Shown piece by piece: positions 24,758 to 41,454 of a DNA stretch of 64,000 bases. The DNA is taken from the NCBI RefSeq assembly GCF_963519265.1, contig NZ_CAUQNQ010000003.1:7642-71641 (forward strand), in the 5' to 3' direction. Origin of the DNA: an uncultured Gemella sp. (GTDB lineage: Bacteria > Bacillota > Bacilli > Staphylococcales > Gemellaceae). The notes below the pieces were generated by a model, which saw only the letters and a program-made list of their open reading frames with translations, was not told the origin of the DNA and searched no databases. Made by a program: the position numbers and the translations under genes. The stretch's first letter is position 1. Each line of letters begins with the position of its first letter.

Positions 24758-24994
24758 AAAATGGAAATTTTGACTGTTTTTTCCATTTTGAACTCTTTTT
24801 TTCTTCCCAAATTGGAAATTTTACCCGTTTTTTCCATTTTGAACTCTCTTTTTCTTCCAAAAATGGAAATTTTACCCGTTTTTTCCATTTTGAGCTCTCT
24901 TTTTCTTCCAAAAATGGAAATTTTGACTATTTTTTCCATTTTGGGCTCTCTTTTTCTTCTTAAAATGGAAATTTCGACTATTTTTTCCATTTTG
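24758..24994. repeat. Tandem array, 51-bp period, 5 hairpin units (last partial)
   Basis: Units start at 24758, 24809, 24860, 24911, 24962; each AAAATGGAAA-N12-TTTCCATTTT plus a pyrimidine-rich linker. Confidence 0.92.
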
Positions 24995-25186
24995 CTTAAT
25001 AAAAAATCTAGGAAACTATGAGATGACTCGATAAAATCGGTTTTGAAGTCACTCACTCTTCCCAGATTTTTTATATATACAACTATTTAGAAAATCGAAC
25101 TCTTATATCTATTTACTTTCATGTATAAACATAAGTCAAAAGGTTTCTGTTTTTTGTATATATATGTCTCGAAAAATAAATCTAGT

Positions 25187-26218
25187 TTATTCTTCTTTGA
25201 ACTTCACACCATTATCTTTCAGTTTTTTGATAATACCTACTCCAATACCATCTAGTTTTTTCAGTTCCTTTTCTGTATAACATTCGATAATTTCTTTATT
25301 ATACAATTCTGCATCGATAATCTTGTTCAATTGTTTTTCCATACCTTTGAAGACAGGATCTTCTTTCATATCTTCTTTGGACACAGACTTACGTCCTTCA
25401 ACAATCAGGCTTTGTTTTTTCTCTATATCTTCTCTATAGAATTTCTCTAATAATTCGTAATGATATTTATTAGTCAAATATTCTTTAGCAATGCCCACTG
25501 AGAATTGCATTTCAAAATATTTTTCCTTATTAGCACCTTTCACATTACCTGGATTTCCTTCTAAATAATCTAGAACTTTATTGAATCCGCCTTTAAAAAT
25601 ATCACCCGTGCACTTATTAAGTTTTTTAAGTTTAGTCATATAATAATGTGCTTCATCAAATCTTTCTTGATTTATGCTAAAGATACTTAACAATAGCAAT
25701 GTCGCTTCTGAATCTTCATAGTCAAAACAATCAATATGATCCATCAATAAACTTTCTCTATCTAGGCGAACATACATAAGTGTCAAGAGATCTATCACCT
25801 CATGGAAATCACTTGGATTCGCCATCAACATAAGTTCATATAGTTTCGCGGCTTCTTCATTCATACCAGCCTTACTATAATATTCAGCCAGAACATCCGC
25901 TATTATCATCTGTTCAGCATCTTCATCATTATCTGAGTACATGATATCCTCTTCCAACTCTACAGCCCTTTCTAGAGCATCTTTATTTTCCTCATGAAGT
26001 TCACGTAAGGCGCTAATTTTATCAACGACACTCATATTCCCTTCATCTATCGCATCAACAAGATCGCTAAGAGAAGCATCTATCTCATAACCTTCGTCGA
26101 CTAAATTGTAAATACGTTCAAATACCTCGGTAGCCTCTTCCTTACTAGAAAAATGCTTCCCTTCAGTTTTCAAAAACTCTTTAAGCAATATTTCGAATTC
26201 TCTATCATGTTTTACCAT
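25187..26218 (-). CDS. Acidic helical (TPR-like) protein with C-terminal helix-hairpin-helix
   Basis: C-terminus TEKELKKLDGIGVGIIKKLKDNGVKF. Confidence 0.65.
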   Translation of the reverse strand: MVKHDREFEILLKEFLKTEGKHFSSKEEATEVFERIYNLVDEGYEIDASLSDLVDAIDEGNMSVVDKISALRELHEENKDALERAVELEEDIMYSDNDEDAEQMIIADVLAEYYSKAGMNEEAAKLYELMLMANPSDFHEVIDLLTLMYVRLDRESLLMDHIDCFDYEDSEATLLLLSIFSINQERFDEAHYYMTKLKKLNKCTGDIFKGGFNKVLDYLEGNPGNVKGANKEKYFEMQFSVGIAKEYLTNKYHYELLEKFYREDIEKKQSLIVEGRKSVSKEDMKEDPVFKGMEKQLNKIIDAELYNKEIIECYTEKELKKLDGIGVGIIKKLKDNGVKFKEE

Positions 26219-27363
26219 AAGTCATCCTCCATAAGATCCATCTGGATATCAAACTCACTATCATCAGCGAACATTACACCGTTTAAATGTAGGTTTTTGA
26301 TAGTCCCCTTACCTAAACCTTTTATTTTAAGAAATTCTGACTTCGTAATCTTCAAGAAATCCTCTTTTGTTAATAAAAAGTTCTCATGCATAATTTTTAA
26401 TTCCGTATCTCTAATTGCCATAAACGATTTATCTCGTTTCATATCAGCAACCGTTATTTCCTTGCGGTCGGCATACTTATCTAATTCATCTCCAATTACA
26501 TATTCACTTTCTCTCACATGCATAAGGAAGTCGAAATAATACTCTCTATTTATAAAATAATCAAATTTCATAACCGTATTAAGAGCATCTAGATACTTAC
26601 AATCATCATCCGTGCTAAATTCAATCAGCTTAGGATTAGCAATTCTATCTAATACATCCGAAATGTATTTATTATTTTTTATCAATTTATTATAGAATGC
26701 AACTGCCTCTTTCTCCTCACCTTGCATCAAGTGATAGAAAACTTTTGATAATAAAATTACATCATCATTTTTACCACGTTTATTCATAAGTTTATAGTAA
26801 TGGTTAAGCATTGTGAAATCATTTAATATAAGACTAGCCACGATAAAATTATGATACATCGGCACTAAAACTTCATCAGCCATATCTAAAGCCATATAAA
26901 AAGGTTTATATGCATCCCAAACTTTATTGTAGAGCTTATTACCTAAATAAAATTCCGCAAGGTGGTGGCAAACTATTAGATGAAGATAGTTAATCGGAAA
27001 TAGTTTACCCTCGACATAACCTTCTTCAAAGGTGTATACTTCATCTTTTAGGCGTAGTAATGCTAATTCTATTTCATATTCTGTACAATCTTTACTAACA
27101 ATTTTCCAGACTCTAGCATCCACATTATACTTAGATAAAGCTATTGCATCTTCAATATAAATCGCATATTTAGAATCATCAATATTCTCAATAAACTCCG
27201 CAAAAAGCCTCATCGATTCTTTAAAATCAGATTCAATCTCTTTAGAAGTAAATCTAATCTTACCATAACCTTGATTAAGTTTAAAGTCTCTAGATGTTTT
27301 ATTCCTAATTCCTGTATATCCTTTTTTATTAACAGGAAATTTTATAATTTTTTTATTATTCAT
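26212..27363 (-). CDS. Helical protein with C-terminal helix-hairpin-helix, paralogue-like to the downstream gene
   Basis: C-terminus TKSEFLKIKGLGKGTIKNLHLNGVMF; RBS AGGAGG; overlaps next gene. Confidence 0.65.
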   Translation of the reverse strand: MNNKKIIKFPVNKKGYTGIRNKTSRDFKLNQGYGKIRFTSKEIESDFKESMRLFAEFIENIDDSKYAIYIEDAIALSKYNVDARVWKIVSKDCTEYEIELALLRLKDEVYTFEEGYVEGKLFPINYLHLIVCHHLAEFYLGNKLYNKVWDAYKPFYMALDMADEVLVPMYHNFIVASLILNDFTMLNHYYKLMNKRGKNDDVILLSKVFYHLMQGEEKEAVAFYNKLIKNNKYISDVLDRIANPKLIEFSTDDDCKYLDALNTVMKFDYFINREYYFDFLMHVRESEYVIGDELDKYADRKEITVADMKRDKSFMAIRDTELKIMHENFLLTKEDFLKITKSEFLKIKGLGKGTIKNLHLNGVMFADDSEFDIQMDLMEDDLW

Positions 27364-27700
27364 GTCTGCCCCTCCTTTTATCTTTATAATAAATATACAA
27401 AATTTACAGCGATTTTATCAATCCTCTTATATATGAAAATCTTTATAAAATTCACTCTTCCTTCAACTTTATTCTACACCAAATTTCAATATAATACAAA
27501 CTTAACAATCAGCAAATCGCCAAATATGAAGAATAAAAAATAATTTATGGTAGTTAACAGAAATAAAAAAACTTATCTCATACTTAATAAGATAAGATTC
27601 TTTATAACTTGACATAGTGACCTATAATGATAAAACAAGGGAAGTAGATAGCCATTTTAGCTCACGACGCACATACTTCACTTGTGTGTAAATATTAGTA

Positions 27701-27766
27701 TAAAAAGCCAATTGAACTGAATCTTCAATTGGCTTTCGTGGTGGAATTTGATAGACATCATTCACT
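27701..27766 (-). ncRNA. Putative antisense antitoxin RNA, module A
   Basis: Terminator AAAAAGCCAATTGAA-ctgaatc-TTCAATTGGCTTT (27702-27736) followed by GTGGTGGAATTTGATAGACAT, which matches the toxin A start region. Confidence 0.55.
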
Positions 27767-27865
27767 TCTTATAGTCTATCCCATGTTTTAGCTATTGACC
27801 CAGCGTAAATCATCTTCACTTATGTCTAATATCAATTGATACCTTGCCCGAAAGGAGGTGGTTGA

Positions 27866-27916
27866 ATGGAGATAGACATTACCCAAATTCTTGTTAATTA
27901 TTATCAGAAATACTAA
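27866..27916 (+). pseudogene. Frameshifted type I toxin, module A
   Basis: AAAGGAGGTG RBS, MEIDITQILVN then a 1-nt loss relative to module C; the shifted frame continues LLSEILILI. Confidence 0.65.
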
Positions 27917-28234
27917 TCCTAATATATAATATTATCCTCTTAATTTATATCAACTTACTTTTAGACACAGCTCATAAATTCCACTCTATACGTGATTTCC
28001 ACCACTAATCTGATTAAAATCAAAATTAGAGCTTATATTAAAAAGTATTATTACTTCCTATTCACTTGTCTATACTTTATCATATCTTTCTATATCATGT
28101 CAAACAACTTTCATTTAAAATCACTATTCTTTTTTTCTTGATAACTACCTTTTTTATTTTCCGTTTACATAATCTTAAAAATGCAATTTTAATCTCAACA
28201 TCAATAAGAAAACCTTTTCTAACATGACTTCTAG

Positions 28235-28243
28235 TGCTATAAT
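28235..28243 (+). promoter_or_regulatory. Extended -10 promoter of toxin B
   Basis: TGcTATAAT, conserved in module C at 28680-28688. Confidence 0.7.
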
Positions 28244-28279
28244 AAAGTTAGGCTACTAGCTCCAAAAGGAGGTGGTTGC

Positions 28280-28387
28280 ATGTACGATATAATCGTTCAA
28301 ATTCTTGTTGGACTATTTATAGGAATTATTCTCCTATTTATAGAATATTTTTATTTCCTAAATGATAAAAACAACAAGAAAAGGTAG
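28280..28387 (+). CDS. 35-aa type I toxin-like membrane peptide, module B
   Basis: AAAGGAGGTG RBS; MYDIIVQILVGLFIGIILLFIEYFYFLNDKNNKKR*: one TM helix plus charged tail. Confidence 0.85.
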   Translation: MYDIIVQILVGLFIGIILLFIEYFYFLNDKNNKKR

Positions 28388-28466
28388 CCCTATTTAGGCA
28401 CGACGTACATGTTATTCACTCATGTATGAATATCTATTCTCATACTAAGTAGTATGTTAATACATA

Positions 28467-28538
28467 TAAAAAAGCAACTGAATGGCGTTTCAGTTGCTTT
28501 TCGTGGTCTCATGTGAATATAATCGTCCAATTCACTTA
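28467..28538 (-). ncRNA. Putative antisense antitoxin RNA, module B (about 70 nt)
   Basis: Minus-strand TTGACA (28573-28568)-18 bp-TAGAAT (28549-28544); ends at bidirectional terminator 28468-28501; carries a copy of the toxin B start region. Confidence 0.75.
28468..28501. terminator. Bidirectional terminator, module B
   Basis: AAAAAAGCAACTGAA-tggcgt-TTCAGTTGCTTTT. Confidence 0.85.
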
Positions 28539-28724
28539 TATATATTCTACCACATACCTTTTCTTGTTGTCAATTAATTCGAAGGCATATCCTCTATCCC
28601 TTCTCCTATTTACATAATCTTAAAAATCTAACTTTAGTTTTAACATTAATAAGAAAACCTTTTCTAAAATAATTTCTAGTGCTATAATAAAGGTAGGCTA
28701 CTGCCCCGGAAGGGAGGTGTTGGT

Positions 28725-28826
28725 ATGAATACTAGCATTTCACAAATTCTTGTGAATCTATTATCCGGAGTTATTCTTCTGATAATAGAATATTATTTCC
28801 TAAAAGATAACAACAAGAAAAAGTAG
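28725..28826 (+). CDS. 33-aa type I toxin-like membrane peptide, module C
   Basis: GGGAGGTG RBS; MNTSISQILVNLLSGVILLIIEYYFLKDNNKKK*; paralogue of module B. Confidence 0.85.
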   Translation: MNTSISQILVNLLSGVILLIIEYYFLKDNNKKK

Positions 28827-28883
28827 CCATTTTAGGACACGATGCATACTCTTCACTTTGTATGTGAATATTAAATATTAATA

Positions 28884-28953
28884 TAAAAAGCCAATTGAAA
28901 TAGCACTTCAATTGGCTTTCGTGTTGGAATGTACTAGCATTTCACATTCACTT
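28884..28953 (-). ncRNA. Putative antisense antitoxin RNA, module C (about 70 nt)
   Basis: Minus-strand TTGACA (28989-28984)-18 bp-TAGAAT (28965-28960); ends at terminator 28885-28919; carries a copy of the toxin C start region. Confidence 0.75.
28885..28919. terminator. Bidirectional terminator, module C
   Basis: AAAAAGCCAATTGAA-atagcac-TTCAATTGGCTTT. Confidence 0.85.
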
Positions 28954-29064
28954 TCCTATATTCTATCACATACCTTTTCTTGTTGTCAATTAATTCGAAG
29001 AGCTGGATATAATAAAATTCGGAAAGGGTAGAAAAAAAATAAATTTCTTTAAACTATAAATTGC

Positions 29065-29657
29065 GGGTCTATAATAAATACGGTTGATAATAAATATCAG
29101 CCGTATTTAAATTTATAAAAAAATAGAAAAGAATGTAAAATTCCTCTATAATTTAAGTATGAGCAAAAAATCAAGAAAGGAAATTTACATTCATATGTGT
29201 AATTATAGCAAATCTCTTAAAATAACGCTACAAATAACTGACGAAAATATAAAAATTCTAGATAAAACAGAGGAAATTGAAATAAATGGTTGTAAGCATC
29301 TCGTTTATTACGGAGTATTGGAAGCTTCATCTAACTCTTGTCCTTATTGTAAAGAATGTAAGATAACTAATAACGGTCCTTTAGAAGGAATTAACAACAA
29401 AATTAAAGTTATTAAGCGTATTTCTTATGGTTATAGATCTTTTAGTAACTTTAAAGCTAAAATACTCCTTGTATTCAGCTTATTTATACCTTCTGAAACT
29501 AACAAAAAACCTAGATATTCGAAAGAAGAGCGCCAAGATATTCTCGATAAAAAGAAAGAAATAAAACTAAAACGAAAAAATAGAAAAAAAGCTATACTAC
29601 TTAATATAGCATAGCTTTCTCCTAATTTTCTAAATCAACCGAATTTGACAAAGAACC
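29065..29657 (+). mobile_element. Internally deleted ISL3-family element
   Basis: Imperfect terminal IRs GGGTCTATAATAAATACGGTTGAT and (rc) GGTTCTTTGTCAAATTCGGTTGAT enclosing a transposase remnant. Confidence 0.8.
29159..29614 (+). pseudogene. ISL3 transposase remnant (N-terminal zinc finger joined to C-terminus)
   Basis: CPYC directly joined to TNNGPLEGINNKIKVIKRISYGYRSFSNF; the central DDE region is missing. Confidence 0.85.
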
Positions 29658-29819
29658 GCAAAATGCTGCCTAGATTTCTAGAGTGATTTTTTCCCATGCC
29701 CCGAACTTGACAAAGAGCCAAAATTTGTTACTTAATTCTTGCCGACGAAAAAATTTTTTTAATTTTTCATTGTAATTTAATTTTTTGGAATTTATTTTCC
29801 GTAATAATTTGACTTTAAC

Positions 29820-29885
29820 AGAAGCTACAAAACCCTTGTAATTACTCGACTATTTGACTGTGTCATTATTATGACGCGAAACCCA
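29820..29885. repeat. 66-bp direct repeat, left copy
   Basis: 58/66 identical to 35636-35701 by manual alignment; core TGTCATTATTATGAC palindrome. Confidence 0.9.
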
Positions 29886-29898
29886 GACGATGCGTCCA

Positions 29899-30525
29899 CT
29901 ATAGCTCATTTCTTTTTTTTTGCAAAAACATAATACATTTTAATATTTTTTCAATATTTTTATCATCGGAATATTTATTGTAAAATCCATACATATTCAT
30001 GAGCAAAAAATCCAATCTTCTAATTTCTTCATCCAATTTCAATTTTCTATAGAAGCTACAAATAATATTATCTGTAATATATTTTTGCTCCGTCCTAATA
30101 TAATACTCCTCATCTCTATAAAATAATTCTGTTATGCTTTCATCATCAACATTAAATCTTGGAGAATATGCTTCACTCCATATAAAATCTTTTTTTGCTC
30201 TATTACATTTTTTGCATGAGAGAACCAAATTATTTATTTTGCCAGCATTTATAAAATCTTCATTGAATGATGATTCACAAATAAAATGATCTACTTCAAA
30301 TAATTCACAACTTATCACATCTGTTGTGATACCACAATAAGCACATTTATTATTATATATATTCCTAAATTGCTTATTATATTCACTATCTCTTTTATTT
30401 ATTTGATTGTATATTATTTTTACCTTAGGATGTTCTCTTTTTATTCTCTCTTCTAAAGCTTTTTTTTCATCAATAATGTTCTTTTTGGGAACTTCATATA
30501 CTGTATTTCTATAATCATTCTTCAT
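29899..30525 (-). CDS. HNH endonuclease
   Basis: CAYC..FEVDHF..NNLVLSCKKCNRAK zinc-finger HNH motif. Confidence 0.88.
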   Translation of the reverse strand: MKNDYRNTVYEVPKKNIIDEKKALEERIKREHPKVKIIYNQINKRDSEYNKQFRNIYNNKCAYCGITTDVISCELFEVDHFICESSFNEDFINAGKINNLVLSCKKCNRAKKDFIWSEAYSPRFNVDDESITELFYRDEEYYIRTEQKYITDNIICSFYRKLKLDEEIRRLDFLLMNMYGFYNKYSDDKNIEKILKCIMFLQKKRNEL

Positions 30526-31111
30526 AATTTTTTCTCATTTCTTCAAAAGCTTTAATAAGATTATCAATATCCATCTTAGTTAAATTATCATAATTTGACA
30601 CTCCATTTATTGAATTCTCCATTTTTTCAAATAGGAATTTCTCAACATAATTTTTCATGGAAATATTTTTTAAAATATTTCTATTTAAAATTATATTTTG
30701 GGTGGCATTAACTATTCCTTCATTCCAATTATCTTGAAAAAATGAATCCACACCACAAAGATACGTATTAGAATTATATTTTTTTAATGTACTATATTCC
30801 ATCTTTTCTTGATATTGAGTAATTACTATTATTTCTTTAAAAGGAAAAATTTTTTTAATTATCAAGCCAAGCTCTTCCCCAGAAATTTTCTTATCTTGTA
30901 CGTTTCCATTTTCAAAAAGCATTGAATCCAAAAACAATATATCAGCTTTTTGAATTTCATCATTCTCAAGCAAGTCTTCGTAGGAATATTTATTTTCAAA
31001 TTTCAATTCTGAATATTTATATTCAGCCTTATCATTTGAATATGAATTTAAATATTTCGAAACATACAAATCAATTTTGTCATCTACATAAAGCATAGTT
31101 ATTAATTCCAT
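30515..31111 (-). CDS. Response-regulator receiver-domain protein without a recognisable DNA-binding domain
   Basis: MLYVDD, DILFLD (phospho-acceptor position), SGEEL, IIVIT; overlaps both neighbours. Confidence 0.72.
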   Translation of the reverse strand: MELITMLYVDDKIDLYVSKYLNSYSNDKAEYKYSELKFENKYSYEDLLENDEIQKADILFLDSMLFENGNVQDKKISGEELGLIIKKIFPFKEIIVITQYQEKMEYSTLKKYNSNTYLCGVDSFFQDNWNEGIVNATQNIILNRNILKNISMKNYVEKFLFEKMENSINGVSNYDNLTKMDIDNLIKAFEEMRKNYEE

Positions 31112-33239
31112 TTAAAATCGTTTCCTCCATTTCAAAACTAAATTTAAACCCACTCTCTCCTGAAATAGAAAGAATTTTTCCTTTTTGTAAATTAATTGTA
31201 TTGTTAATTATCCACATCCCAAGACCGTGTCCATTTGTTCTGCTTGTTTCATGCGGTTCTAAAATAATTCTTGGGTTATCTAAATATTTTTTTGACAATC
31301 CCTTCCCATCATCGTAATACAATATTTTCAGCTTATTATTATCTCTACTAATTACAATTTTTATTCTTAATTCATTAGCTTCGCTGTTTTGTTGAACACT
31401 ATTTAGTATTAAATTATCAAATATAGTGTAGAATGTGTCTTTTGATATATTAAATTCTACTTTATCATCTATACACGTTTCTATATGTAACCAAGAATAA
31501 TCTTTTTTCCAACCTTCTAATATTTGATTTAAAATTTCTTTTATATTTAAACATTCTGCAAAAAATTGATTTTTTTCTACTTTTTCTAAAATCGCATCAA
31601 TAAATCTCAGTATTTTTTTTACTGCAATATGATTATTTTCTAACAAACCTGGTATATCTTCACACGCAATTTTTCTATTCTCTGGACTATTAACAATTTC
31701 CCAAACCCTATATTTTTTTAAAGCATTAACGATGTCATCATAGGATGGTTCCATTTGATTTCTGTCGTTATTTATTTCATGTGCTATTGATGTAGCCTTC
31801 ATTCCAGATGTTGCTAGAGCATTTAAAATTCTAACATCATATTTATACCTTGCTTTCTCTTGCTCAAATTTTTTACTATCTTGTTTAAATAATTTTAGTT
31901 CATTAATAAGCTTATCCTGTTCACTTTTATTTAAATTTTCTATCTTTTTAGGATTTTTAACAATTTCATCTGATATTTTTTTTATAGGCGCTTCTTCACC
32001 TTTATTTTTTTCATTTATTTTTCGAATTATTTTTTGTCTATATCTTTCAAATTCTTTGATACCAGTTAATATAATTTGAACGAACAATTTATAGTATATA
32101 TTTTCATCTAATCCTTGTCTATTCATAAGATCTTGCAATACTATATTTTGTTGCTTATCAATCAATACATATCCAGACATTTGATTTTCTCTAACTCTCC
32201 AAGCCCCTGTGGGATGTGATGCCGCTGCTGGAGATTTTCTTGTTCTTTTCCCTAATCCTAACCAATCTCTTTCACCTTCAAACGATGATATGCTAAAAGC
32301 ATTTCTATAAAGAATCACCCCACTATCAACACTTTCATCAGTACTTAAATATTTATATAAAAATTTTTCTTTATCTTGCTTTGTTGCGTTTAAGTTGAAA
32401 AATAAGTTTACAGAGAATCCCCCAAGTTCCTCTAACTCAGAAAATAATTCTTCTCCTCGCATCTCAGCAATTTCATTACCTTCAAATTCATCAAAAATAT
32501 TCACTTCACTTTTATATGTATTTAAATCCATTTCTGGGCAATACTTTATGGCTTCACTATCAAACTCGTCTGAAAGCACTAATACAGACAGTATTCCTTT
32601 ATTATATTTTAGTACAATATTCGCTCTACAATTTTTTCCAGGTTCAGGTTTTGGAAAATGCAACTTCACAAATTCATCGTATTCATTAGCTATAATCCGT
32701 ATCTTCATAGCTGTATCATTATATGTTTTCTCAAGGTACTTATTTAATTTTTCAATTCTCCTAAGAGTCCATTTTTTTCTAAGATTGTTTATTACTATAC
32801 AAGTACCTTTATTTTCTATGCTAGAATCTAAATCTAATGTTGATTTATCCCAATCTGTTTTCCAAACGACTCCATCTTTTTGTGCCTTTTTACTATACAA
32901 TCGTATATTTTCACCTAATCTAGACAAGGCAAAACGACCTACTCCTTTCGCTCCAGCTTGCACTCTAACATTATTATTTGTATCAATGAAATCATATCCT
33001 TTACTGCTTTTTCCAATATGCATCCAGTGTTTCTTTATATCCTCTGAATCCATGCCATCTCCATTATCAGTTATTCTCAGCGTTGTTTTATCAATAAACT
33101 CTAATGTAACAATCAAAGCATTCGCATCATATGCATTTTTAACCAATTCTAAAACTGCCGCCTCATCATTGGAAAAGTTTTGTACGCCTAAAAGCTCTGC
33201 AATTGTACTATCTTCAATACTATACTTAAGATATTCCAT
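31080..33239 (-). CDS. GHKL (MORC/MutL-like) ATPase fused to a histidine kinase
   Basis: N-terminal ELVKNAYDA, DNGDGM, GAKGVGRFA; C-terminal IAHEINN, FDNLILNS, DDGKGL, GHGLGMWI; probable start ATG 33239 after GAGGAGG; no TM segment. Confidence 0.88.
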   Translation of the reverse strand: MEYLKYSIEDSTIAELLGVQNFSNDEAAVLELVKNAYDANALIVTLEFIDKTTLRITDNGDGMDSEDIKKHWMHIGKSSKGYDFIDTNNNVRVQAGAKGVGRFALSRLGENIRLYSKKAQKDGVVWKTDWDKSTLDLDSSIENKGTCIVINNLRKKWTLRRIEKLNKYLEKTYNDTAMKIRIIANEYDEFVKLHFPKPEPGKNCRANIVLKYNKGILSVLVLSDEFDSEAIKYCPEMDLNTYKSEVNIFDEFEGNEIAEMRGEELFSELEELGGFSVNLFFNLNATKQDKEKFLYKYLSTDESVDSGVILYRNAFSISSFEGERDWLGLGKRTRKSPAAASHPTGAWRVRENQMSGYVLIDKQQNIVLQDLMNRQGLDENIYYKLFVQIILTGIKEFERYRQKIIRKINEKNKGEEAPIKKISDEIVKNPKKIENLNKSEQDKLINELKLFKQDSKKFEQEKARYKYDVRILNALATSGMKATSIAHEINNDRNQMEPSYDDIVNALKKYRVWEIVNSPENRKIACEDIPGLLENNHIAVKKILRFIDAILEKVEKNQFFAECLNIKEILNQILEGWKKDYSWLHIETCIDDKVEFNISKDTFYTIFDNLILNSVQQNSEANELRIKIVISRDNNKLKILYYDDGKGLSKKYLDNPRIILEPHETSRTNGHGLGMWIINNTINLQKGKILSISGESGFKFSFEMEETILNGINNYALCR

Positions 33240-33249
33240 ATTTCCTCCT

Positions 33250-34692
33250 CTAAAAATTAAATTCTTCAATATCCTTCGATGTAATTCTCAATGAACTTCC
33301 ACTAATATTTATCCCCACCTTCTTTACATAGTCCATGAAATTTTCACTTTCAAGAATTCTTTTTGCAAAATCCAAATTATATTCTTGGTTTTCATCTCTT
33401 AAGGAAATATACATTCCTGCATATGGAATATAATCCTCCTCTAGCCTATATATACAGACTTTATCTGTGATAATTGTTGATATAAGAAGTTTTTCGCATT
33501 TAATTCCTGAAAGTGCTTGCGTTCTTCCATATTCAAACCACTTTGATCTTTTGTCAGATTTTCTTTCTGTTAATTCTCTTTTGAATTGGCTCAAATAGAA
33601 AAAAGTACCAGGATATAAATTTGCAAATTCATTTTCTTCATATTTTATTAACCGATTATTAATATATTTATATGGAAAAATAATTTTTTCAACTTTACCA
33701 TACCTTATAGTTCTTGGTGTTGCAGTTGGCATTACTGCACCTTTTTCAATCATGAAATTTCCAACTTTATAATATTCCTCTATTTCATCATACATATTTT
33801 CATTAATTACATATGCTTTATTTAACAAAGTTGCTATCACATGTGAAACTTTGAAATAATCGCCAAATCGGTTGTTTCCTATATTAAACTCATTAGAAAA
33901 AATCCATTTCCCTTTCATTATTTTTTTATTAATGGATAATCTATTATTACAACACATGTCGAAATATTTAATTTTTTTACTAATATAGTTTTTATCAAAA
34001 ATTATAATAGCTGACTTAACTAATGCATCATCAAATATCTTTTCTTTTGTATAATCTTTTATGACAACAATATTCTCACTCATAAATTCTCTAAGTTTAT
34101 CACCAAAAACCGTTTTAAATATACTACTCGGTATTAAATAAGACATTTTACCTTCATTTGATAACAACTTTATACTATGTTCTATAAATGCATAGCAATA
34201 GTCAAATTTCCCTTGTCTACATGTTTCGTATTTCTCCTTAATAAATGTTCTTTCCTCTTTAGACAAATCACTATAAGTTATATAAGGCGGATTCCCTACT
34301 ATAAAATCGAATTGTGTTTTTATTTCACTTTTTAGATAGTCTTCATTATAAATTTTCCAATTAACATCCTGTATTTCATTTTCTTCCGCAATTAAGTTTA
34401 AGTTATATATGCACTTTTCAAATTGTTTTTTGTCAATTTCAAACCCAAAAATATTACGTTCTAAACCATCTTTTATTTTTTTGTTAGAATATTTAAGTTT
34501 TACTGCTTCTTCAATATATCTTTTAACTATTTCAACAAGAATATTACCATCACCACATGAATTCTCTAATACTGTTTTATTTATTATATTTCTACAATAT
34601 CCAACCGAATCCAGCAACTCATTAACGTAATTTGATGGAGTAAAAATTTGACATTTATTCGCTATATTTTTTTTATTTAATTTTTTCATCAT
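33250..34692 (-). CDS. N6-adenine DNA methyltransferase (Eco57I/TaqI-like, gamma class)
   Basis: IFTP, motif I LENSCGDGNIL, motif IV IVGNPPY, C-terminal KWFEYGRTQ. Confidence 0.9.
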   Translation of the reverse strand: MMKKLNKKNIANKCQIFTPSNYVNELLDSVGYCRNIINKTVLENSCGDGNILVEIVKRYIEEAVKLKYSNKKIKDGLERNIFGFEIDKKQFEKCIYNLNLIAEENEIQDVNWKIYNEDYLKSEIKTQFDFIVGNPPYITYSDLSKEERTFIKEKYETCRQGKFDYCYAFIEHSIKLLSNEGKMSYLIPSSIFKTVFGDKLREFMSENIVVIKDYTKEKIFDDALVKSAIIIFDKNYISKKIKYFDMCCNNRLSINKKIMKGKWIFSNEFNIGNNRFGDYFKVSHVIATLLNKAYVINENMYDEIEEYYKVGNFMIEKGAVMPTATPRTIRYGKVEKIIFPYKYINNRLIKYEENEFANLYPGTFFYLSQFKRELTERKSDKRSKWFEYGRTQALSGIKCEKLLISTIITDKVCIYRLEEDYIPYAGMYISLRDENQEYNLDFAKRILESENFMDYVKKVGINISGSSLRITSKDIEEFNF

Positions 34693-34696
34693 TAAA

Positions 34697-35530
34697 TTAC
34701 TCCATTTTTTTTATTACTTCATTATTTACTTTTTCCAAAGAAATAATTTGCTTTTGAGCAAGCTTTCTAAGTTCTATCATTCTTTCTTTTTGGTCCGTAC
34801 CTTTTCCAATTAGGATTGCATTATAACTTTCCATATTTACAAGTACCAATAACTCATTCAGACTTGCATAGTCTCTCATATTACCCTTTAAATCTGGATT
34901 TTCTTCACACCACTGTTTTACTCTTTTATTAAATAAAGCAACATTTAGCATATCTTCTTCACTTTCGTATTTATAGGATAACTGTTCGTTGGTAAGATCC
35001 TTTAAGAGATATTCTTTGAGTGCATCTATATGGATTTTGTAGTTAATCTTTGAAATTTCCCTCTTCAAGTTCCAACCTAATGATAGTTTTGAATTCTCAT
35101 CTAATTTAAGTCTTCTGTAATCTTGAATTACATACATCTTAAATTCAGCAGAAATCCATGAAGCAAATTCAAAGACAATATCTGTATGTGCAAATGCACC
35201 TCCATATCTTCCACCTTTTGAGATAATTCCGATTGCTTCTGTTTTCTCTACCCATTTCTCAGGAGACAATGTAAAGGGATTATATCCAACTTCCGATTTA
35301 ATTCGGTCGAATTCGACCGAATTGAAATTCATGTTGTTTAAGCTTTCCCATAAACCAAGAAATTCAATTGTATCTTTTCTTCTCATCCAATTTTTAATTA
35401 CATCACTTGGTTCATCACTTTTATACCTTGCAATATCCGTTAGACTTATATAGTCGTTTTTAAAATCTTCAGTATAAATTTGAATAGCAAAACCTTTTGC
35501 TTCAATCATATCTTTTTTTACCTTAGACAT
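34697..35530 (-). CDS. KilA-N domain DNA-binding protein
   Basis: DYISLTDIARYK..IKNWMR..TIEFLGLWE, GRYGGAFAH..FEFASWIS. Confidence 0.88.
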   Translation of the reverse strand: MSKVKKDMIEAKGFAIQIYTEDFKNDYISLTDIARYKSDEPSDVIKNWMRRKDTIEFLGLWESLNNMNFNSVEFDRIKSEVGYNPFTLSPEKWVEKTEAIGIISKGGRYGGAFAHTDIVFEFASWISAEFKMYVIQDYRRLKLDENSKLSLGWNLKREISKINYKIHIDALKEYLLKDLTNEQLSYKYESEEDMLNVALFNKRVKQWCEENPDLKGNMRDYASLNELLVLVNMESYNAILIGKGTDQKERMIELRKLAQKQIISLEKVNNEVIKKME

Positions 35531-35635
35531 GTATGTTCCTCCTTTATGCTGATGTACTATTTACAACATTTATTTTCGTAATAACCGCTCTAAACAACAT
35601 ACCAACAATTCATTTTTCTAGTTTTAAACTTTGGT

Positions 35636-35701
35636 AGAAGCTCTAAAATCCTTGTAATTACTCGACTATTTGCCTATGTCATTATTATGACATGAAATCC
35701 A
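35636..35701. repeat. 66-bp direct repeat, right copy
   Basis: See 29820-29885; contains perfect ATGTCAT-tatt-ATGACAT. Confidence 0.9.
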
Positions 35702-36795
35702 CAAACAGGCTCTAACACATAATCAGTTAGCAATACATCAATAAATTTTGTCATAAGAGTTGTAATATGGTGGGGCGTTAAAACAATTCCTAGACCATTT
35801 CCGTCGCTACCTCCATATTTAACAAACTCGTCATAAAAATTACCTAAAATATCGTAATTTATATTTTACTTAAAATGATGAATAACTTTATCTTATAATT
35901 TTCTAATAAAATAATGAAGTGGTGTTATCCCCAACATCTCGTTTTTTCCATTTAAGTAAACATTTGTTTCTAAAAAAGAGAACTTATTAATAAGAATACT
36001 GACCTTGTCTTCTGGCATAATACCTTCAGCCGTAATATAATCTTTAACTGATTTCAGTATTCTCATTCCATCACTGCTAATTACTGGTTTTGTTAAATCC
36101 TCTTTCCCATCTTTACCTTTAGGATATTTATTACCCCTTAATTTAGGTATATCAATCCCATCTTCATTAAGAGCTAGAAGTATTGCTGAATTTACCATAG
36201 CCTTATTTTCGCCCTCAAGAGAAGCGTAATTCCTCAAATCCTCATGAAGCTCTCTAGAAACATTTTGCAACTCAAAAATACGTTTTTGTTCAATCGGAGC
36301 CTCTCCAAGAACATTAACAGAATACCATTCATTAATATTATCTAGATTAAGTACTTGGAAATCTCACAATATTGGAAAAATCTTTTCAGTAATCTCACTA
36401 TCTACAAAACTAACTAAGACAGGTTAAATATTATGTAACTCCTCATCTCCTGTTACACCTATTGCAATTACTTCATCAAAAGAGCTAGTTTTAGTTACAA
36501 TATTGTTTGCATAGTGAACCGCACCATTAACTGCATAGCCTGATAAAGAAGCAACATCCTTGGCAATAAAGCATTTATCAAACTTAATGAGTTTATCATT
36601 ATCTCTCTTATTTTCTATAACAACTAGATAGTCTGAAATTTACATAACAAATTCAGGTTTCCAAATTCCAGATTTTCCTTGTTTACTTGCTACTTTAAGC
36701 GCTTTAGCTATTGAACCTTGTTCATCATAACGCACTCCAAACTTTTCTATTTTTCTTCTGATATATTGGTTAGTCGTTGTTGCTTCCTTTTTCAT
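35700..36795 (-). pseudogene. BcgI-alpha-like (Type IIB/IIG) restriction-modification subunit pseudogene
   Basis: From ATG 36795: KPEFVM*ISDYLVVIENK..YAVNGAVHYA..*, then the 35893-36270 ORF, then LGNFYDEFVKYGGSDGNGLGIVLTP..VLEPVCG; several stops, ends at MTase motif I. Confidence 0.78.
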
Positions 36796-39894: not shown

Positions 39895-41454
39895 CTACTT
39901 CTCTATACTTTTAATGATCCATTCTCCTGCTTTTGTTGACCCCTTACGTTCTAATATACCCTCTTTTTTATACTTACTTACATGATATTTAGCTCCATCA
40001 TAAGTTAATCCCAATTCAACAGCTAATTCTTTTATAGTAATCCGTGGATGCCTTCTAATTATCTCTAGAATTCTACCTTGCTGGGTAGTTTCTTGGGTAG
40101 TTTCTTGGGTAGTTTCTTGGGTAGTTTTATGAATCTCATTTTTATTACTATTTTGAACTGTTTCCATGAACTCTTCATTAATTTTTATTATTACATTTGT
40201 ATAGTCATCATCTTTATTATCTAATACATATTCCAAAGAAGGTGATGCATTTGCTCTCAGCGCTTCTTTGGCGCGCCTTACTCCCGAACCATAAGACTCT
40301 ATTAAATTCAAGGAATAGAACATATCTTTTAATTCACCACTAATATACTGCCTATTATCAAAACTATCCTTAGAATTTAAGGAATCTATAGTCACAGGTG
40401 GCAATGGGCGATTATGATTAATAATCGAAATATAATTTTCATAAATATATACACCTATATATTGTTGTGATTCATAATCTTTATGAACTATTGCATTTAT
40501 TAGTAGTTCTTCAAATGTGGAAAGCGGATAATTGTATTTGATATTATGCTCAATTTTATCTTCTTTCCTGATTGTATGTGATCGCATAACCTCATCTTTA
40601 AAATAGTCTATCACTCTTTTTGCCTGCTTCCAAATTGGTCCTGCAAAATCCTTAGCTTCCATTTTATCTGTTTTAGAAACTTCTCTTATTACTTTAACAA
40701 ATGCCCCAGGAATAAATCTCCTAGGTTCATCACAAAACATAAGTACAGCAAAATTCTTAACTCTAAATTTTCCTAATTCAGTCTTACTAATCAAATCTAG
40801 ACTTTTAGCCATTTCAAGTTTATTTTGCTCTTTTATATCTTGTTTTGATTCTGTTTCAATAAGGTATTCTCTCATATATTCATAATTTAAATCATCTAGA
40901 GTTGCAGTATTATTTAATGAACTCGAAAATAATTTCCCAGTAAATTTTTTTAATAACACTAATTCTTGTGACGGAGATGGTAAAACACTGTCTCTATTAT
41001 CCCTTATATACCTACCAGGTTTCAGATTAATCCCCTTAGTACTCTCAGCTTTATCACTGGTTTGATAGGGTCCATTAGTACCAGGTTCTACAGCGATTAT
41101 TAAATACTTAATACCTTGATATTCATTTACTATAATTTGATAACATATTCTTGGATGTATATTCGCTAATAACTTCCTCAATTGATTTTCTGTTGTTTCT
41201 ATCACAGACTCTTCTATTCCACAAATTGGAATTTTCGGAATAGCCTTTATCCCCTTCTCGATATCGTTTTCTTCCTCTACTCCAATGAATATTAAACCTA
41301 TTTCCGATTCCATATAATTATTGGCAAATGCACATGCGGTTTTTAAAATTTTATCTTTAAAACTAGCAGATTTTTTATATTCTATATATTCATTCTCTAT
41401 TTTCTTTGATTGCAAAATTTCATTCGCAAGCTCCTTAATATCTTCTATTTTCAT
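39895..41454 (-). CDS. AlbA_2/Schlafen-like domain + HATPase_c_4-like domain + C-terminal winged HTH
   Basis: ENEYIEYKK..ACAFAN..GLIFIGV; ELLINAIVHKDY, IESYGSGV; TTQE linker; C-terminal ITIKELA..ERKGSTKAGEW. Confidence 0.82.
   Translation of the reverse strand: MKIEDIKELANEILQSKKIENEYIEYKKSASFKDKILKTACAFANNYMESEIGLIFIGVEEENDIEKGIKAIPKIPICGIEESVIETTENQLRKLLANIHPRICYQIIVNEYQGIKYLIIAVEPGTNGPYQTSDKAESTKGINLKPGRYIRDNRDSVLPSPSQELVLLKKFTGKLFSSSLNNTATLDDLNYEYMREYLIETESKQDIKEQNKLEMAKSLDLISKTELGKFRVKNFAVLMFCDEPRRFIPGAFVKVIREVSKTDKMEAKDFAGPIWKQAKRVIDYFKDEVMRSHTIRKEDKIEHNIKYNYPLSTFEELLINAIVHKDYESQQYIGVYIYENYISIINHNRPLPPVTIDSLNSKDSFDNRQYISGELKDMFYSLNLIESYGSGVRRAKEALRANASPSLEYVLDNKDDDYTNVIIKINEEFMETVQNSNKNEIHKTTQETTQETTQETTQQGRILEIIRRHPRITIKELAVELGLTYDGAKYHVSKYKKEGILERKGSTKAGEWIIKSIEK
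40082..40127. repeat. 12-bp tandem repeat, about 4 copies (TTQE)
   Basis: (TGGGTAGTTTCT)n. Confidence 0.9.

Follow-up and report, generated by a model that had tools for sequence, protein, structure and literature searches.

An Ambrosia-like methylase, kinase, receiver, and nuclease cassette in Bacillota with a predicted receiver-nuclease contact

The described defense system closest to the locus considered here is Ambrosia (AbrR-AbrA-AbrB-AbrC-AbrD) of Pseudomonas aeruginosa, which consists of an XRE regulator, an N6 methylase, a HATPase kinase, a receiver, and an HNH nuclease (van den Berg et al., bioRxiv 10.1101/2025.09.30.679545). That preprint reports that Ambrosia blocks two phage groups, that every gene as well as residue D60 of the receiver is required, and that the system is induced on infection, as followed with abrA and abrD reporters, and is not toxic to the host. 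Loss of the methyltransferase (MTase) ended defense, and propagation with the MTase alone gave phages no protection; in the model put forward by its authors, control is transcriptional and works through a winged helix of AbrC. Here we analyze a similar five-gene locus in a stretch of 64,000 nucleotides from an uncultured Gemella sp. (contig NZ_CAUQNQ010000003.1; the whole stretch is referred to as the window). An initial annotation of this DNA had proposed a novel defense cassette with an HNH nuclease under the control of a His-to-Asp relay. The core of that proposal is supported, as the same gene set is anti-phage in Ambrosia, the genes are co-conserved, and a contact between receiver and nuclease is predicted, while the novelty, the membership of a KilA-N gene, and a self-marking role for the MTase are not supported. 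Novelty was preceded both by Ambrosia in 2025 and by a 2021 paper on HEF_HK/Response_reg_2, which describes a HATPase kinase-receiver pair beside restriction-modification (R-M) genes and proposes signaling control of R-M (PMC8011034).

We consider it likely that the cassette works like Ambrosia, as a kinase-gated nuclease defense, and this judgment is made jointly for our best explanation and its mechanistic rivals. The best explanation itself, which we hold at somewhat better than even confidence, is that of an Ambrosia-type cassette centered in the Bacillota, in which docking of the receiver on the nuclease is controlled by phosphorylation and the methylase is an exchangeable recognition part. 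The features of the locus are as follows, in coordinates of the window.

33250..34692, minus strand: N6-adenine DNA methyltransferase of 480 amino acids (aa), AbrA-like, a core gene (Pfam, PADLOC, motifs)
31080..33239, minus strand: GHL ATPase, middle domain, coiled coil, and soluble histidine kinase in one protein of 719 aa, AbrB-like (Pfam, model)
30515..31111, minus strand: receiver protein of 198 aa, AbrC-like, with a receiver (REC) domain and an acidic all-helical tail (fold match, invariant residues)
29899..30525, minus strand: zinc HNH endonuclease of 208 aa, AbrD-like (Pfam, PADLOC, invariant residues)
34697..35530, minus strand: KilA-N protein of 277 aa, accessory passenger of a mobile-element end (Pfam, PADLOC)
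35628..35701, minus strand: attachment-site arm of a Tn1806-like element, the upstream cassette boundary (74-nt direct repeat)
29812..29885, minus strand: second copy of the attachment arm, the downstream boundary, 13 nt past the HNH stop (74-nt direct repeat)
35668..36795, minus strand: 5' half, with 6 stops, of a broken type IIG R-M gene, the insertion target, outside the system (PADLOC)

All five open reading frames (ORFs) of the initial annotation were confirmed on the minus strand, with their coordinates unchanged. From KilA-N to HNH the intergenic spacings are +4, +10, -32, and -11 nt, in agreement with its description of five co-oriented genes that overlap or are separated by 10 bp or less; the -32 overlap between kinase and receiver exists because the kinase reads through in this copy, and near-identical relatives have a stop there. 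No 19-mer in the five proteins has a hydrophobicity score above 1.21. The MTase matches Eco57I (PF07669, E 3e-24), N6_Mtase (PF02384), and the PADLOC model MTase_II (E 3e-53), with motif I at residue 43 and NPPY at residue 134, and searches with Pfam, PADLOC, and NCBIfam revealed no PD-(D/E)xK gene within the cassette, so that the original reading of an NPPY MTase lacking such a partner was correct. A promoter scan did no better than chance, with 32 hits compared to 42.6 expected.

In comparison with Ambrosia, the same four genes are found in the same order, namely an N6 methylase, a HATPase kinase, a receiver with its phosphoacceptor Asp (D60 there, D62 here), and an HNH nuclease. The Gemella locus differs in that it has no HipB-like XRE, in that the model of the receiver, with its predicted tail, contains no winged helix, in that a direct contact of this receiver with the nuclease is predicted, and in that it carries a KilA-N passenger and belongs to a Bacillota-centered clade, whereas Ambrosia was reported across Gammaproteobacteria. 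Because the XRE and the winged helix are missing, and because AbrA-D were compared by description only, we do not file the cassette as a strict member of Ambrosia. No XRE regulator is present in the cassette, upstream of which there are KilA-N and the attachment arm, and a subset of 20 small ORFs scanned at loci of the close clade (19 at most 600 bases upstream and 1 internal) gave no HTH_3 or HTH_26 match. An XRE is located more than 1 kb upstream in one locus (L005), and XREs are immediately upstream in three more distant loci.

The HEF_HK/Response_reg_2 pair is also similar, as a soluble HATPase_c_3, H-box, and HATPase_c kinase is encoded beside a receiver gene and a DNA methylase in both cases, and HNH neighbors were noted there. 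The differences are an m6A rather than a mostly C5 methylase, a 198-aa receiver vs a 600-aa query, and the lack of matches to its two Pfam families here: PF19191 had no match in the kinase at E 0.05 and none at this locus in the genome search, and PF19192 had no match in the receiver at E 0.05. Detocs (Rousset et al., bioRxiv 10.1101/2023.01.24.525353) is comparable in that its defense is reported to depend on the kinase His and the receiver Asp and its effectors are exchangeable. It differs in its TPR-type sensor, its lack of an MTase, an effector fused to the receiver, a buffer receiver, and abortive infection, whereas the Gemella locus has a single receiver gene, a separate HNH gene, and a GHL sensor. 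Prokaryotic MORC/paraMORC ATPases in R-M operons have, as here, a GHKL ATPase at the N-terminus and an association with methylases and nucleases (Iyer et al. 2008, PMC2292703); unlike in these, VcSduA, and the BbrUII/HgiDII-type GHKL nucleases, the ATPase here is fused to a histidine kinase and the nuclease is separate. The passages of PMC7159879 and PMC12839542 examined contain no description of this system.

To assess conservation of the cassette, we examined 5 genome, 63 metagenome, 80 viral-collection, 11 gammaproteobacterial, and 6 plasmid regions. Co-conservation was counted at the 27 loci that have an unbroken kinase ORF of at least 45% identity, leaving out split or partial kinases, and these counts are not independent because many loci are close kin. 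A receiver gene is located downstream in 27/27 loci (24 whole, 2 cut by contig ends, and 1 broken), an HNH gene is present in 23 of the 24 loci with room for it, and an N6 methylase is adjacent in all 25 with room, which confirms that the four core genes are conserved together. The ratio of nonsynonymous to synonymous substitution rates (dN/dS) is between 0.12 and 0.42 across 21 gene pairs. Three HNH groups can be recognized in the kinase tree: the one described here, a sister group in which the methylase gene may be located up- or downstream, and a third group found mostly in Gammaproteobacteria. A gammaproteobacterial sister clade shares the gene order and proves homologous in a profile-profile comparison of receivers (probability 95.5, E 1.4e-8). 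No Pseudomonas-named homologue was among the matches listed in plasmid searches, protein searches, and a 400-genome class sample, and E. coli genomes gave no match.

Distant relatives retain the methylase, kinase, and receiver while the fourth gene is swapped. This gene encodes a metallo-beta-lactamase in 3 distant loci (L132, L165, and L169, confirmed with PF00753), a caspase-like His/Cys protein in 3 distant loci with a C5 methylase (L135, L144, and L208, by motif pattern only), and an unannotated HPxxH-motif protein of ~245 aa in 19 loci (e.g. L125, L126, L133, L145, L184, and L190, by motif pattern only). Another clade has a large receiver with a C5 methylase. Campylobacter plasmids account for 38 of the 55 plasmid matches of a distant kinase, and the one examined (L209, CP132133.1) encodes a kinase, a receiver, and a convergent C5 methylase. 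We propose tentatively, and with some doubt, that Ambrosia-type systems in general might be a modular phosphorelay immunity instead of transcription switches, with a methylase as reader, a MORC-like clamp, a kinase, and a receiver tail that holds an exchangeable effector.

The methylase appears to have a different history from the rest of the cassette. A tree of 52 MTases disagrees with a tree of 124 distinct kinases (FastTree, midpoint root, without a formal topology test), and MTases that are 84-85% identical to the Gemella protein are paired with kinases only 27-44% identical (L070 and L073). At L070 the MTase also stands alongside an HNH protein only 32% identical, while two close kinases (L045 and L052) use another MTase family. 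Kinase clade, receiver type and length, and the fourth gene co-vary, and MTase family and position shift. Such exchange would not be expected if the nuclease had a matched site specificity of its own, and the swapping of MTases between blocks, together with the Ambrosia result that MTase loss ended defense and phages grown with the MTase alone stayed sensitive, argues against simple self-marking in the type II sense, which had been the role initially assigned to this gene.

The 198-aa receiver protein has no receiver-family Pfam match, and a sequence search of solved structures returned nothing for it. Its model nevertheless folds as a receiver (Z 11.7, root-mean-square deviation 2.8-2.9, 122-124 residues aligned in a fold search), and D10, D11, D62, and K111 are invariant in 21/21 sequences, with T98 as a further REC residue. 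The acidic pocket recognized in the initial annotation is thus real, but the protein is not a bare receiver: a helical tail of ~75 residues follows, and the model has no beta-strand after residue 110 and hence no wing. No winged helix-turn-helix was found in the model, in which the tail has a predicted local distance difference test score (pLDDT) of 58-69 and residues 151-198 are barely covered by the fold search; within this limited coverage the tail had no known fold among the matches listed. The last 45 residues have a negative net charge in 21/21 receivers, and such an acidic tail is unlike a DNA-binding head. The prediction of a zinc HNH nuclease was also correct, with a match to PF01844 (E 1e-7) and with the zinc and catalytic residues (C61/C64, D79-H80, N99, C104/C107, and N108) invariant in 20/20 sequences. 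A sequence search of solved structures gave only generic HNH/Cas9 matches for this protein, and Pfam revealed no methyl-reading-domain match in it.

When receiver and HNH were co-folded from their two alignments, the score was 0.83, compared to 0.01 for the best of 3 controls. This mark is attained by 116/157 solved complexes and by 2/215 mismatched pairs, a rough calibration because own alignments were used. The runs agreed in at least 75% of contacts, the partner had a pLDDT of 88, and the predicted interface places receiver helix 176-196 on HNH residues 139-141 and 167-208, off the catalytic region. The tail helix of the receiver is thus placed, in the prediction, on the C-terminal helical domain of the nuclease, and the interface positions are better conserved than the remainder of these regions (p ~0.02 on each side). 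No similar solved receiver-HNH complex was found by sequence search. The predicted docking of the tail, together with the lack of a winged helix, favors direct control over the transcriptional model of the preprint. We found neither a direct receiver-HNH complex nor a Bacillota clade of Ambrosia in the literature covered, which excludes most subscription journals.

The kinase was expected to be a soluble ATPase fused to a full histidine kinase, and this was confirmed by an intact H-box histidine, two intact ATP sites, and the lack of a hydrophobic span. Pfam places HATPase_c_3 at residues 26-135 and HATPase_c at 601-705, and E31, N35, D58, G60, G62, H487, N609, N613, D643, G645, G672, and G674 are invariant in 57/57 aligned homologues, with H487 invariant in 80/80 of a wider set. 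The model (pLDDT 85.7) has a GHL domain, a middle domain, a long helix (438-491) that leads up to the H-box, and the ATP domain of a kinase, and its fold matches are Hsp90 proteins (N and M domains) and the ZraS sensor-kinase core. The family model NF050001 matches residues 15-171 only, far under its cut-off.

Taken together, these features suggest the following course of events. Invading DNA would be engaged by the clamp of the GHL ATPase, for which the MTase probably serves as an exchangeable reader of DNA sequence, and a signal would run along the coiled coil to H487, which is expected to autophosphorylate, as the catalytic residues of the kinase are intact. The phosphate would then pass from H487 to D62, the equivalent of which is essential in Ambrosia. 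Phosphorylation of the receiver could alter the predicted docking of its last helix on the helical C-terminal domain of HNH, so that the nuclease is unleashed or recruited, and DNA cleavage would halt phage replication, as shown for Ambrosia only. KilA-N would not be needed for defense.

Several points weigh against this explanation. The likeness to Ambrosia was judged from domains and gene order rather than from the AbrA-D sequences, and in the preprint the AbrC winged helix and infection-induced transcription fit a different output. The receiver-nuclease complex is a prediction in which the receiver chain has a pLDDT of ~72, compared to 58-69 for the tail alone, and the higher conservation of interface positions is not independent of the alignments that were fed to the model. 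A transcriptional model would have the receiver, once phosphorylated, induce expression of MTase and HNH, after which the nuclease attacks DNA with the system's own methyl mark. The infection-induced abrA/abrD reporters and the unprotective MTase-only propagation described for Ambrosia would fit with this, but there is no strand for a wing in the receiver model, the tail is acidic in all 21 sequences and is predicted to bind the nuclease, the cassette has no XRE, and the HNH protein has no methyl-reading-domain match in Pfam, and we consider the model improbable here. We give equally little credence to a Detocs-like guard, in which the kinase watches the MTase or host DNA and an anti-restriction protein or DNA damage triggers killing of the cell. 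The exchange of the fourth gene for metallo-beta-lactamase, caspase-like, or HPxxH proteins is in favor of it, as exchange of effectors is characteristic of systems that signal and then kill, Detocs among them, but Ambrosia is reported not to be toxic to the host during defense. Classical self/non-self restriction, with an MTase that shields host sites, a nuclease directed at unmethylated ones, and a relay limited to tuning, comes nearest to the initial annotation but appears very improbable. The MTase is indeed intact and type II-like, and the negative MTase-only test could be explained if the Ambrosia MTase methylated only within the full complex; against this, MTases 84-85% identical to this one accompany strongly diverged kinases and, at L070, a diverged HNH, and the close kinases of L045 and L052 work with a different MTase family.

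The remaining alternative concerns this copy rather than the family, which would work as in our best explanation while the Gemella copy is poorly tuned or inactive, left behind by an element that has lost its body; we regard this as unlikely. In its favor, and likewise a point against our explanation for this genome, the kinase has a 4-residue deletion ~25 residues before H487, in the signaling helix, found in 1 of the 92 homologues scored (a further 29 did not fit the patterns), and its C-terminus has lost the usual stop and reads through by 11 residues, which is private to this copy. A register shift in a signaling helix of this kind can fix a kinase in its active or inactive state. Broken copies are also common among related loci (L029, L031, L040, L042, L053, and L073), and the sole PF07508 recombinase match of the genome is on another contig. 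On the other hand, all catalytic residues are intact, no gene is frameshifted, and the deletion may reflect an assembly error. Both the deletion and the read-through are absent from related public runs that cover the site, and two public runs carry the cassette at ~98% identity beside the same broken gene. The kinase has 6 substitutions at conserved columns, the same number as one other homologue (P0006), and is no outlier among 56 sequences. We also considered general decay of the kinase, which was not supported, as substitutions at conserved columns are not in excess. On this lineage, the core genes have 12 nonsynonymous and 7 synonymous substitutions, compared to 7 and 9 elsewhere, numbers that are too few and come from a subset (35 of ~485 differences). 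Because of the private deletion and read-through, the kinase of this genome may be impaired, judging from its sequence.

The cassette appears to be a mobile and probably anti-phage unit in which the KilA-N gene is a passenger. The five genes are bracketed by the 74-nt direct repeat, whose copies are 85% identical; the possibility of a genus-wide repeat was rejected, as it occurs in 2/32 genus genomes. The upstream arm truncates the type IIG gene at the S-adenosylmethionine (SAM)-binding motif I, and what is left of this gene matches positions 1-365 of 637 of the PADLOC model PDLC03602 (E 1e-88). A second, unbroken type IIG-like gene that matches the same model is present elsewhere in the genome (G000:C2:33840-35558). 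The same arm cuts MTase genes at motif I in three other loci (L017, L042, and L073), and KilA-N follows it in all three. At L042 (3500-10500) a decayed cassette is located between two attachment arms, the second of which is followed by another KilA-N gene, so that KilA-N stands after each arm in a tandem accretion of element ends. Tn1806-like elements, which are integrative and conjugative elements, integrate into DNA methyltransferase genes (PMC12942858), and the junction letters reported there are identical to those of the window, L017, L042, and L073. Both the target genes and the junction letters are therefore shared with these elements, while the Gemella locus keeps only one arm, in two copies, and end cargo. 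Neither conjugation nor integrase genes occur on either side of the cassette. We infer that it was end cargo of a Tn1806-like element, that a second insertion occurred just past HNH, and that the element bodies are no longer at this locus.

The KilA-N protein (PF04383, E 5e-19; PADLOC candidate PDC-S22, E 1e-119) precedes the MTase in 5/19 intact close loci with at least 900 bases of upstream flank. It belongs to the vehicle because it follows the attachment arm elsewhere too, and we rejected it as a core gene on the basis of this linkage and the 5/19 occurrence; its inclusion as a system component in the initial annotation is not supported. A full-length kinase was found in 1/32 genus genomes and in 1/401 sampled phylum genomes, this genome both times, indicating that the cassette is patchy and mobile.

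If the modular reading proposed above is true, this would be a two-component system with DNA methylation state as its input and a docked nuclease as its output, disseminated among Bacillota by elements that deliver it at the cost of a restriction gene already present in the host. Ambrosia raises two mechanistic questions, namely why the methylase is needed yet unprotective and how the relay reaches the nuclease. The clade described here lacks the proposed transcription regulators and offers a specific, mutable receiver-nuclease interface with which docking and transcription could be told apart. It would also extend the Ambrosia-type system to low-GC Gram-positive bacteria and show that it travels as end cargo of MTase-targeting elements.

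Several other features of the window were observed in the surroundings of the cassette. Just outside it, at 29159-29614, there is a remnant of an ISL3 transposase. Three repeat units ~415-445 bp apart occupy 27649-29000, and every unit includes both an inverted repeat and a strong ribosome-binding site; the one unit read by eye codes for a hydrophobic peptide of 33 aa that has a basic tail, and we presume from this resemblance that it may be a type I toxin-antitoxin array. Two adjacent genes at 25187-27363 encode proteins of 343 and 383 aa with weak TPR-like Pfam matches or none, and at least 4 tandem repeats of 51 bp, open on both strands, are present at 24758-25012. On the other side, a gene at 39895-41454 with Schlafen AlbA_2, HATPase_c_4, and HTH domains is a possible further defense gene, the neighbors of which look, by eye, like dTDP-rhamnose synthesis genes.

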